Shown here in pieces: positions 6,828 to 18,566 of a stretch of DNA of 64,000 nt. A program made the position numbers and the translations under genes. The stretch's first letter is position 1; the number at the start of each line of letters is the position of its first letter. The notes under the pieces were generated by a model that searched no databases, was not told the origin of the DNA, and saw nothing but the letters and a program-made list of their open reading frames with translations. The DNA is from an uncultured delta proteobacterium (GTDB lineage: Bacteria > Desulfobacterota > Binatia > Bin18): contig CAVTCR010000056.1 in NCBI GenBank assembly GCA_963733195.1, positions 64,001 to 128,000 of the forward strand, in the 5' to 3' direction.

Positions 6828-7226
6828 GTGCGAGTAGTTCACTACCAATGTACTCACTGTAATAAGAAAATGCGTGCGGCAGCAGGAACCCCCAATGCTC
6901 CACAAATACTCACCCTTTTGAATGGTTTTACCGAACTCGTCAATCAATACAACGAAATCACAAGATCATCCCCGATTACTGGAACCGTGGAGTTTACAAC
7001 ACCCCCCGCGCCGCTACCATATGAGCAAACCAGTCGGACACCGATACCGGAAGCAGTGCGAAGTGAAGTCTGGCGCCGTGATGGAGGGCGTTGTGTGAAA
7101 TGCAGTTCAAAGGAAAACTTACAGTTTGACCACATCATTCCGGTAGCGCGCGGAGGTGCGACTTCAGCGCAGAATCTTCAACTGCTTTGCCAACAATGCA
7201 ATCGAGTCAAAGGTACAAGAATCTAG
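6828..7226 (+). CDS. HNH endonuclease (cassette-borne, possibly 5'-truncated)
   Basis: VWRRDGGRCVKC...FDHIIPVARGG...NLQLLCQQCN; followed by attC R'' half-site. Confidence 0.85.
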   Translation: MRVVHYQCTHCNKKMRAAAGTPNAPQILTLLNGFTELVNQYNEITRSSPITGTVEFTTPPAPLPYEQTSRTPIPEAVRSEVWRRDGGRCVKCSSKENLQFDHIIPVARGGATSAQNLQLLCQQCNRVKGTRI

Positions 7227-7246: not shown

Positions 7247-7971
7247 GCAGCTAAATCGGGTAAGGGCGGTCATTGCTGACCACCCTCCCCACACCACCTA
7301 GCATGCGGGTCCGCACTAGGCGGTTCAGGCAGGATGGGAAGCGAGAGAGATCTCGCTCAAGGCTGGGTCGATGACCCTCCGCCGCAGCGCCGTTGCCCGG
7401 TACGGGCCTGGCTCTGTCGAGGCGGTCATCCCTCCGCCTTGTCCTCCCTGTTCGGTCCTTCGCGGTCGGCCTCGGAAGAGGCCGACCGCTACTATGCCCG
7501 CGGCTGACTTCTGCTCCGGGCTCAAAGAGGATTACTCCTCCCCGCAGTCAATTTCCGTGGCACGCCACTTCCCAGGACACGGAGCAGATCTCCCCGGATA
7601 AGACCGTGAGTGGTCGTTGCACAAGCGCGGCATTTACCCGATCCCCCGATTCACAGGACTTCGTTGTGTTGTGCCAACTCGTCCCGGGGAAGTGAGCCTT
7701 CTATGCCGTTCGTGTTCCTCGCCTCGCAACGCGGTCGCCGGCTTCCTTCAGACCCCACCTCGCGGTGACGCCCTTGCCTTGGACTTGTAGTTATCCTCAT
7801 GTATCCTGCGATTCATGAAGGTGAACCTCCTACAGGGGACTTGCACCCCCACACTCACGCCCATGCCGGGCGTACACCAACTCGTTCCACCGCATCGCCG
7901 CCCGTTAGCGACTCTGAATGAACTCTGAATGGCTACGTTTGGGCGGCTCGCGGTGACCGCGAGCGTTAGCG
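7247..7971 (+). other. Integron attC site interrupted by the intron
   Basis: Removing the intron gives GCAGCTAACCAACTCGTTCCACCG...CGGTGACCGCGAGCGTTAGCG; homologous to attC at 18416-18514. Confidence 0.8.
7255..7876 (-). ncRNA. ORF-less group IIC (attC-targeting) intron; ends +/-1 nt
   Basis: Minus strand begins GTACGCCCGGCATGGGCG, has AGAAGTCAGC..GGGCATAGTAG and GAAGGACCGAAC (DII/DIII), DV GAACCGCCTAGTGCGGACCCGCATGCTAGGTGGTG, DVI ending CCCGAT; DIV only ~125 nt. Confidence 0.9.
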
Positions 7972-8123: not shown

Positions 8124-9287
8124 TCATAACGGCTCCGTACCTTCGTTGAGAATTGCCAGATAGTGATCGTAAGCGAATACACGATTGCGTCGGTGTCCGG
8201 TTAACTCTCGGGCAATGCCGAGTTCGAGAAGACCCTTGATGCCTTTCGTCGTAGTGGGAAAGGAGATGTTCGCGCGCCGGGCGACGTCATTTAATGTGAT
8301 AATAGGTCGTTCGCAGAGGGTATTGAACACATGCAAGGCGCTTGCACCTGCACGTCCGAGCGAATGCACGCGATCGCGATCTTCTTTGAATAACCCTACC
8401 AGACGCTGGGCGGTGCGTACTGCATTTGATGCGGTATCTTCCACCCCTTCTAGAAAGAAGTCCAACCATACTTCCCAGTCCCCTTCTGTACGCACCAAAT
8501 CGAGCAGGCGATAGTATTCGAGCCGGTGTTGCTTGAAGTAGAGGCTCAGATAAAGCAACGGCGAGGAGAGCACGCCGCCATTGTGCAGAATGAAAGCGAT
8601 CAGCAGGCGGCCTATACGACCGTTCCCATCAAGAAACGGATGGATCGTTTCGAACTGAACATGCGCCAGGGCAGTTTTGACCAGCGTAGGATAAGGCGAA
8701 TGTTCGTCATGAATGAATCGCTCTAGCGCTGCCATGCAGTCTTCGACTTGGGCGGGTGGTGGTGGAACGAAGTGGGCATTGCCTGGACGTGTACCACCGA
8801 TCCAATTCTGCGTACGGCGGAATTCACCAGGAGACTTCTCACTCCCTCGGCCACGTGAGAGCAACACTGCGTGCATTTCCCGGATGAGCCGGTTGGAAAG
8901 CGGAAAGTTGTCACGCAACCGGGCCATGCCATGCTCTAGCGCGGCGACATAGCCCGAGACTTCCACTACGTCGTCGAAGGGTACCCCGGGCGCCTCTTCT
9001 AGTTCGAAGAGTAGCAAATCTGCGAGCGAGGACTGGGTCCCTTCGATTTGTGAAGAAAGCACTGCCTCGCGGCGGATATAGGTGTACAGGAAAGTGTTTG
9101 GGTCTGGCAGCAGTAACGTGATGCTGTCCAGCCGCCCGAGGGCGAGTGTTGCCCGCTCCAATAGCCGTTGGCGAGCGTTGGAAAAATCCATAGGCGGGTC
9201 CGGCGGCAAAGGATGCGGAATAAAAGCCCGAATCTGTTCACCACCTGCACTGGTGATTTCGTATTGGCCTGTGTTTCCTCGTCGCAT
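8124..9287 (-). CDS. Fic/DOC family protein with C-terminal HTH
   Basis: EAVLSSQIEG, HPFLDGNGRIGR Fic motif, C-terminal winged HTH-like region. Confidence 0.93.
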   Translation of the reverse strand: MRRGNTGQYEITSAGGEQIRAFIPHPLPPDPPMDFSNARQRLLERATLALGRLDSITLLLPDPNTFLYTYIRREAVLSSQIEGTQSSLADLLLFELEEAPGVPFDDVVEVSGYVAALEHGMARLRDNFPLSNRLIREMHAVLLSRGRGSEKSPGEFRRTQNWIGGTRPGNAHFVPPPPAQVEDCMAALERFIHDEHSPYPTLVKTALAHVQFETIHPFLDGNGRIGRLLIAFILHNGGVLSSPLLYLSLYFKQHRLEYYRLLDLVRTEGDWEVWLDFFLEGVEDTASNAVRTAQRLVGLFKEDRDRVHSLGRAGASALHVFNTLCERPIITLNDVARRANISFPTTTKGIKGLLELGIARELTGHRRNRVFAYDHYLAILNEGTEPL

Positions 9288-17781: not shown

Positions 17782-17890
17782 GCCTAACGAACCTACGATA
17801 GGGGAACGCGGCTCTTCTGGCGGTTTGGGATGAGCGTGACATGAAAAAATTCGTTTCAGAGCCGTGCCCTTGATCGGACGTGCGATGACA
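17782..17890 (+). other. Degenerate attC site
   Basis: R'' GCCTAAC, stem GGGGAACGCGGCTCT/AGAGCCGTGCCCTT; R' degenerate. Confidence 0.5.
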
Positions 17891-18499
17891 CGCAGACCAC
17901 TTAGTAAACAGATGCGCGTCCAGATTCTTGCACGCGATGAGTACCGTTGCTTGATGTGTGGTCGCGAGAAAGACGAGGTAGCCCTCGAAGTTGATCACGT
18001 AATTCCTGTAGCTACAGGTGGCACGGATGAACTTGAGAACTTGGCTACTCTTTGCCGAGACTGCAATAGGGGGAAGTCAGCCTATCGATTTTCGGATTAT
18101 CGAAACATGAATGTCATTCCGGAGGAGCTTCAGCAGAATTTTAAGTTTTTTCATGATGCACGTTCCGGTGATTTTGAGCAGTTCCATCTCTTTCTTTACT
18201 ACAAGAACGGAATTCATCCTGGCACCACAGATGACAAGTTCCACCACCCCTGGAAGATCTCTGGTACATCGTATGACACATCGTCAGATCAGGCTGCACT
18301 CATTAAGCGGCGTCGCGAGGAGGAAGAAACGAAGTTTCTCGCCGAAATCAAGAGACAACTCATTCTTGAAGGGAAGCGGTTGGTCATTAATGAAGAGGGT
18401 ATTTGCAAAGTCGACGGCTTACAAACCGTTCCACCGAATTGCCGCCCGCTTGCGGTTCTGAATGAACGTGAGAGGATACGGTTGGGCGACAAACGGTGA
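17885..18499 (+). CDS. HNH endonuclease cassette gene (reads through its attC)
   Basis: ILARDEYRCLMCG..LEVDHVIP..GG...NLATLCRDCNRGKS. Confidence 0.88.
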   Translation: MTRRPLSKQMRVQILARDEYRCLMCGREKDEVALEVDHVIPVATGGTDELENLATLCRDCNRGKSAYRFSDYRNMNVIPEELQQNFKFFHDARSGDFEQFHLFLYYKNGIHPGTTDDKFHHPWKISGTSYDTSSDQAALIKRRREEEETKFLAEIKRQLILEGKRLVINEEGICKVDGLQTVPPNCRPLAVLNERERIRLGDKR

Positions 18500-18514
18500 C
18501 CGGGACCGTTAGCC
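18416..18514 (+). other. attC site (R'' mutated to GGCTTAC)
   Basis: CACCG..GCCGCCC / GGGCGAC..CGGTG stem, R' GTTAGCC; paralog of the intron-split attC. Confidence 0.8.
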
Positions 18515-18566
18515 AGCAACAAGAGAAGTCATAGAAAAGCACAGGAAGGCAATTTATAAGGCGGGC

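Follow-up and report, generated by a model that had tools for sequence, protein, structure and literature searches.

A complete group IIC ribozyme within an attC site

The locus examined here lies in a 64,000-nt stretch of DNA from an uncultured delta proteobacterium (the window) and raises the question of how a group II intron with no RT gene of its own came to occupy an attC site, and whether such an element is a dead relic or a unit that moves with the help of its relatives. The intron spans 621 nt on the minus strand (7875..7255), from GTACG at its 5' end to CCCGAT at its 3' end, with termini placed by alignment to about 40 relatives whose exons differ, in close agreement with the complete class C ribozyme of about 620 nt proposed in an earlier note on this DNA. 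Three Rfam families match it, namely D1D4-3 (RF02001, 111 bits, 7603-7769), D1D4-1 (RF01998, 41.8 bits, 7455-7545) and Intron_gpII (RF00029, 40.1 bits against a gathering score of 40, 7255-7325), and the RNA folds with a z of -6.9, better than all 20 shuffles. A 163-pair DI-DVI structure was drawn by hand, in part from an RNAalifold run on the same alignment, because RNAalifold had put a long-range DI stem wrongly. This structure is 95.5% paired across 24 full-length gene-less copies, with both sides changed at 39 pairs, while none of 500 shuffles matched its pairing and covariation and slid controls dropped to 40-48%, figures that are inflated by the kinship of the copies and by the structure's own derivation from the alignment. 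The earlier note had held that its reading would fall if no DI-DVI structure could be folded; the fold and the covarying pairs supply one, from which the window copy deviates at three pairs, including one in the basal stem of DIII.

The individual domains can be followed along the minus strand. Domain I (7593..7870), of IIC type and marked by the RF02001 match, has helices 1-12 paired at 92-100% and contains the predicted EBS1, ACAA (7669..7672), whose loop position was assigned by analogy with the E.r. intron. Its pairing with IBS1, TGGT (7876-7879), holds in part, as three of the four bases pair and one forms an A-G mismatch. Domain II (7510..7588) has a basal helix that is 97% paired, with four of its nine pairs changed on both sides, and Domain III (7454..7499), marked by RF01998, carries a G-A mismatch in the basal stem of the window copy. 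DIVa, the predicted maturase-binding arm (7370..7430), is followed by a DIVb stub, an 8-bp hairpin (7339..7358) delimited by parent comparison and covariation, whose 4-nt loop (7347-7350) marks the place where an RT gene of about 1.23 kb used to be. Domain V (7293..7324), placed by RF00029 and the structure, is of the short IIC type with a CGC triad at 7320-7322, CGC being the triad of IIC introns, and Domain VI (7257..7290) is placed by its fold, with a bulged A at 7261. The group II hallmarks are therefore predicted to be present (a six-domain RNA, a catalytic DV and a bulged A in DVI), as are the subgroup IIC features of a short DV with its triad, a 4-nt EBS1 and a stem-loop in the 5' exon. 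At the ends, the 3' AT fits the group II AY end and the 5' GUACG is a variant of GUGYG, whose A3 is common to 23 of 24 aligned copies and which also occurs in the wider clade.

In silico excision of the intron yields a 101-nt attC whose bottom strand is predicted by DNA folding to form a single hairpin with the R and L boxes paired, and in the fold of the occupied site the R-box pairing is gone and the remaining pairing is kept. The rebuilt site resembles about 35 similar sites scattered across the source genome, which upholds the proposal that the intron lies antisense in the R'' box. On the plus strand, the left part of the split R'' box lies at 7250..7254 and the remaining attC at 7876..7971, comprising the last 2 nt of R'', L'' (7883-7890) and R' GTTAGCG (7965-7971), as assigned from the fold and the attC family; the bottom strand of this remaining part is the 5' exon hairpin of the intron. 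Rebuilt sites of relatives agree with this arrangement, R'' ending in AAC in 23 of 24 and the R box pairing in the fold in 20 of 24. The insertion point of the window copy, TGGT/T on the attC bottom strand at R'', fits the published IIC-attC insertion consensus TTGT/T (PMC7923331). As far as sequence and predicted folding reach, the window element is confirmed as a complete DI-DVI group IIC-attC ribozyme inside an attC R'' box.

Upstream of the attC, an ORF at 6828..7226 on the plus strand encodes an HNH domain (PF01844, E 1.9e-13), with an uncertain start and stops in its upstream part. The placement of the intron after an HNH cassette thus stands as regards the domain and is less secure as regards the cassette, since the attC candidate upstream of the HNH gene folds poorly. 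A second attC of the same family was seen elsewhere in the window (18416-18516), after an HNH-domain gene (17864-18499) and amid cassette-like genes. On the other side of the intron, a Fic-family gene on the minus strand (8124..9287) is directed into the intron 5' end and may be a source of read-through; the terminator scan detected no minus-strand terminator, and the promoter and terminator scan gave no signal above chance. The integron integrase gene sits on a separate contig of the source genome (C33). That the intron blocks cassette excision, as also suggested earlier, is not established; Quiroga et al. (2008) reportedly found that a cassette carrying S.ma.I2 stays recombinationally active.

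An RT-bearing parent and the loss of its gene

The window intron lacks an RT/maturase ORF of its own in DIV, and its origin can be read from full-length parents in two relatives (G005 and G011), whose 445-aa IEP scores above the TIGR04416 cut-off and whose ribozyme is 82-85% identical to the gene-less one. The parent ORF spans M-A-D-S via D-P-A-L-S-E to W-I-S-L-H-Y-P-T, and the gene-less form consists of the first 26 RT codons fused to an eroded C-terminal tail, about 1.23 kb being gone; from an anchor motif to DV, the parents measure 1271 nt versus 37-45 nt in gene-less copies. The internal deletion of the RT, postulated earlier from the window alone, is borne out by this direct alignment. 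Its endpoints are the two strands of the basal stem of the parent DIVb, so that a short hairpin remains and DIVa is left intact, and short repeats border the deleted segment in the parent. Two junction types were distinguished, a long one that is often an in-frame fusion at the stem and a short one that is commoner.

What remains of the gene in the window copy is a vestigial mini-ORF (7325..7429, minus strand) of 26 RT codons plus eroded C-terminal codons, 34 codons in all rather than the roughly 32 first counted. Among 62 copies parsed from 70 distinct DIV segments, the mini-ORF stays in frame to its stop in 31 and has neither ATG nor GTG in 14, and a functional mini-protein was rejected because frame and start are not conserved across copies.

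The parent RTs form a recognizable group, with YCDD instead of the usual YADD in all six intact examples (L054:1220-2554, L020 and four metagenome parents). Among the closest annotated relatives of the parent IEP are ltrA products, 53-54% identical, that lie antisense after class 1 integron-type cassettes. In the RT tree the parent IEP groups with these class 1 integron IEPs (support 94/96, below the starred threshold) and apart from the other intact RTs of the host, in a tree that contains long-branch joins, two unreliably placed fragments from C64 and no terminator-type IIC reference IEP. The source genome (G000), a draft of 87 contigs that is 93% complete, has no assembled cognate RT; identity to the cognate RT reaches at most 38% among the intact RTs of this genome and 55-61% in a single broken class C-like RT. 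The RT-bearing parent anticipated in the earlier note was thus found in relatives and is absent from the assembled source genome.

Copies in the source genome, its relatives and metagenomes

The source genome holds further members of the family, each in an attC site. A gene-less sister on contig C55 is complete and 89% identical, and another on C66 (C66:40437-42273) is interrupted after nt 42 by a transposase-bearing element, which we take from its ORF to be IS630-like. A fourth copy, on C6, retains only its 5' half and is invaded by another intron, the rest being truncated by the contig end. This twintron (C6:101556-103946) consists of an RT intron, which shares 98.6% identity with one on C39, inside DIII of the family member, and the contig stops before the outer intron resumes, that is, before DIV. 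Identity among the three complete copies of this genome is only about 89-90%, which indicates that there was no recent burst in the source genome. Some match to the intron was found in 17 of the 61 genomes searched, source genome included, and four of the 55 family genomes contain the exact gene-less junction, with three copies in the source genome, 13 in G003 and one each in G005 and G013. The earlier note had cautioned that a single copy would argue for a dead relic; the two sisters, the cut-off fourth copy and the 13 junctions in G003 speak against that reading. In plasmid and phage collections, the matches were partial (369 and 1, respectively), none reaching 80% coverage of the intron.

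Other elements were also observed at or near attC sites of this genome. Directly after the attC R' GTTA, on the sense strand, sit members of another group II family that is unrelated to the first (C48:4772-5539, C48:7936-8738 and C26:1-539); the first of these copies and the C26 piece have no ORF, and the second has an ORF remnant only. The cassette region of the C66 sister contains a 563-aa RT ORF with a C-terminal extension (C66:37411-39099), presumably retron-like from a reading of its sequence. Two further repeated elements end at the R'' side of attC sites (C24:58715, C41:1018, C65:30227 and C79:26019, with similar ones on C34 and C81) and are possibly IS1111-attC elements.

The setting of the copies bears on whether host selection keeps the intron as a regulatory insert, in the form of an outward promoter, a transcription block or an excision brake. 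Such roles have a precedent in S.ma.I2, for which both Pout activity and a block on Pc transcription have been published (PMC3001079). In the window, a P1out-like motif lies on the plus strand at 7774..7802, the position reported for a Geobacter intron in a table of that paper, and the predicted R-box pairing of the attC is lost. This motif, however, is weak, falls below the threshold of the promoter scan and faces the convergent fic gene; moreover, the conserved DV, DVI, EBS1 and DIVa would be unnecessary for these roles, and an IS has interrupted one sister and a further intron another. A regulatory insert is accordingly considered very unlikely.

Beyond the family genomes, a metagenome scan with a motif carried by both parents and gene-less copies returned at least 121 stretches, and the matches listed comprise 88 gene-less and 17 parent-like ones, 6 that were too short and 10 of other kinds, of which one looks parent-like by eye. 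Gene-less forms outnumber parent-like ones by about 5:1 among these listed matches, which are a sample in which contigs of one study may be repeats. The gene-less matches listed occupy many different places, with 63 distinct 3' exons in the 69 of 88 that have enough flank, all but one of the 69 beginning with T. A 280-nt ultra-short form was also seen (L204, L210 and L317), in which most of DI-DIII is lost, while the two ends are kept together with DIV, DVI and a DV that is mutated; its three matches have a common 5' exon, and L204 has a second one at a different site.

These surveys also address the concern, raised in the earlier note, that the missing RT is an artefact of assembly collapse. 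The source genome is indeed a draft of many contigs, but the same junction recurs in the four family genomes and in the 88 gene-less metagenome matches among those listed, and public contigs bridge it in three of four runs and again in three of four in a second set. Assembly collapse was consequently rejected and retains next to no probability.

Changes after gene loss and recombination among copies

The sequences around the deletion have continued to change in the gene-less lineage. All 16 parents have A at DIVa position 454, where 53 of 54 short-junction copies have C; at its partner, position 497, 13 of the 16 parents have T and every one of the 54 short-junction copies has G. The pair 452/499 has gone from mostly A-C to C-G. 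In the junction hairpin, one pair reads T-A in 42 of 87 contexts and C-G in 34, and C-G never occurs there among the parents inspected. All of these counts describe patterns rather than numbers of events since the copies are not independent. DIVa was thus kept after the loss of the gene and given what read as compensatory pairs.

The refinement of DIVa bears on the idea that the gene-less ribozyme moves in the absence of its cognate IEP, either by reverse splicing free of protein or by using an unrelated RT from the host or an intron. The source genome lends itself to this idea, as other intact group II RTs are assembled there and the cognate one is not. A maturase arm that is conserved and refined argues against it, and so does the distribution of the cognate RT: genes or fragments of it occur in G003, G005, G008 and G013, and all three relatives with the exact junction carry them (77-100%; 77-86% for the G003 fragments). 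In addition, the outer intron on C6, cut before DIV, could be the missing RT helper. Movement free of the cognate IEP is hence regarded as extremely improbable.

The relationships among copies are more intricate than a single deletion followed by descent. A single clade for all 26 gene-less copies was rejected by the AU test (p = 0.014), and one clade for the 22 short-junction copies was not (p = 0.075). With DI-DIII only, the gene-less label needs 5 changes on the tree versus 9.0 when shuffled, and the nearest neighbour is gene-less for 21 of the 26 gene-less copies against about 19 expected, a modest clustering. Both DVI types are found in parents and in gene-less copies, DI and DVI are mosaic, and one parent fragment is nested among gene-less copies. 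The rejected single clade and the shared DVI types imply a contribution from recombination or repeated deletion, and the mosaics point to recombination among copies as real. Loss of the ORF is also recurrent, as suggested by the wider clade: among 80 genome loci with flanks, 12 reach DV via an RT and 10 without one, and six of the latter retain by eye a full ribozyme with their own deletion points (L081, L085, L098, L136, L137 and L144, in Desulfobacterium, Desulfobulbaceae, Desulfobulbus, Desulfobacterales and Verrucomicrobia records).

These observations give weight to another explanation, in which jumping is confined to full-length introns, each inserted copy sheds its ORF where it sits, either through deletions that recur across the DIVb stem or through homologous recombination with a gene-less copy that already exists, and the gene-less form spreads as DNA, not RNA. 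The repeats flanking the deleted part, the in-frame stem fusion of the long junction, the rejected single clade, the mosaic DI and DVI with the nested parent fragment, and the independent gene-less forms of the wider clade are all in keeping with it. A fresh deletion, however, cannot yield the common derived pairs of DIVa and the junction, and conversion alone predicts parent-like DI-DIII, yet the gene-less copies cluster in these domains. Furthermore, three full-length gene-less copies that are 97-98% identical occupy different attC sites. Spread by in-place loss is therefore judged unlikely as a whole.

Proposed mechanism of mobilisation in trans

The reading that we prefer is that of a non-autonomous intron family mobilised in trans by the cognate IEP of its relatives, which we hold to be probable. 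The comparisons establish, in the sequences compared, the deletion and its parent, the retention of DIVa, many copies at the canonical position of different attC sites, and apparently compensatory changes after the loss; trans-mobilisation itself would follow from this distribution and anatomy, support that is good but indirect. In the proposed sequence of events, read-through from the minus-strand fic gene would give a precursor RNA whose 5' exon is the attC hairpin, and the cognate IEP of a full-length relative would bind DIVa and assist splicing. The resulting RNP would reverse-splice into the single-stranded hairpin of an attC bottom strand through EBS1/IBS1 and EBS3/IBS3, and the borrowed RT would make cDNA of the inserted intron. 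The window copy likely arrived at a time when a helper was available, and it may be stranded now. For every step of this scheme except attC targeting, TeI3 offers a tested precedent, its ORF-less introns having been mobilised experimentally by the IEP of a relative (PMC2882425), and in IIC introns D4a is described as binding the maturase with high affinity (PMC10190682).

Several observations bear on activity more closely. In one contig the last base of a gene-less intron is joined exactly to its first base (L299:144-165), as a circle or head-to-tail tandem, which we regard as a hint of splicing activity; a second 3'-to-5' join lacks one base (L266:149-170). Contigs from metatranscriptome libraries, which cannot show transcription, cover the intron and its junction, with no splice or circle joint among those listed. 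EBS1 fully matches IBS1 in 12 of 19 canonical gene-less cases, with covariation at p = 0.18 for these and p = 0.003 for the whole family. The EBS1 mismatch of the window copy and the mismatch in its DIII stem count against the mobility model.

Relation to known systems and implications

By comparing the family with known systems, we place the window element as a TeI3-like dependent variant that descends from an IIC-attC intron and has no IEP of its own. With IIC-attC introns (the S.ma.I2 lineage and class 1 integron ltrA introns, e.g., NZ_MZ643942.1 and NZ_MF564291.1) it shares antisense insertion in R'' at a TTGT/T-type site, a DI that is 68-71% identical over 293 nt, and the RT clade and IEP similarity of its parent. 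It differs from them in lacking an IEP, in a target that is often TGGT/T, in a parent subclade with YCDD rather than YADD, and in that the gene-less form is the majority among the metagenome matches listed. The likeness to TeI3 of Thermosynechococcus elongatus (Mohr et al. 2010, PMC2882425) lies in a DIVb deletion with N- and C-terminal ORF remnants, common to copies that are numerous and sit at distinct sites, in an altered DIVa and in ORF-less introns being commoner than ORF-bearing ones. TeI3 is of class CL/IIB1, with long EBS pairings, and confined to one genome, whereas the window family belongs to IIC, is directed at attC hairpins, occurs across several genera and has a trans-mobility that is predicted. 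The E. rectale IIC retroelement (PMC10190682) is similar in its 4-nt EBS1, EBS3, DNA stem-loop target and D4a maturase site and is unlike the window family in encoding its own IEP, with 'attC' absent from the main text of that paper. IS1111-attC elements (PMC3001079) likewise insert antisense near the attC 5' end, but are DNA transposons with a transposase and no ribozyme.

Targeting of attC by IIC introns and TeI3-type dependence are each known separately, and the window family would combine both. We found no description of an ORF-less IIC-attC family in the literature, where supplementary intron lists could contain such copies; none appears in the accessible text of PMC4424553, PMC7923331, PMC8876359, PMC2882425, PMC12584367, PMC9229058, PMC10190682 and PMC3001079.

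A widespread gene-less intron family with an identified parent is well supported by the alignments. Tentatively, and with somewhat less than even confidence, the family may be seen as a long-lived, cross-genus, SINE-like parasite of attC-targeting introns, which exceeds its RT-bearing parent about 5:1, has remodelled its maturase arm once non-coding and is the main attC occupant for its lineage. The small number of introns in integrons has been called perplexing (PMC3001079). As RT-based surveys cannot detect gene-less copies, introns without an ORF would, if this view is true, be common in bacteria rather than rare, and would provide the paired homologous copies required by the intron model of cassette formation. 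The gene-less majority in our sample and its continued evolution as a structured RNA suggest that RT-based censuses likely undercount attC introns. The gene-less intron and the cognate IEP offer a natural compact pair with which to study trans-mobility and attC targeting and to test the intron model of cassette formation.
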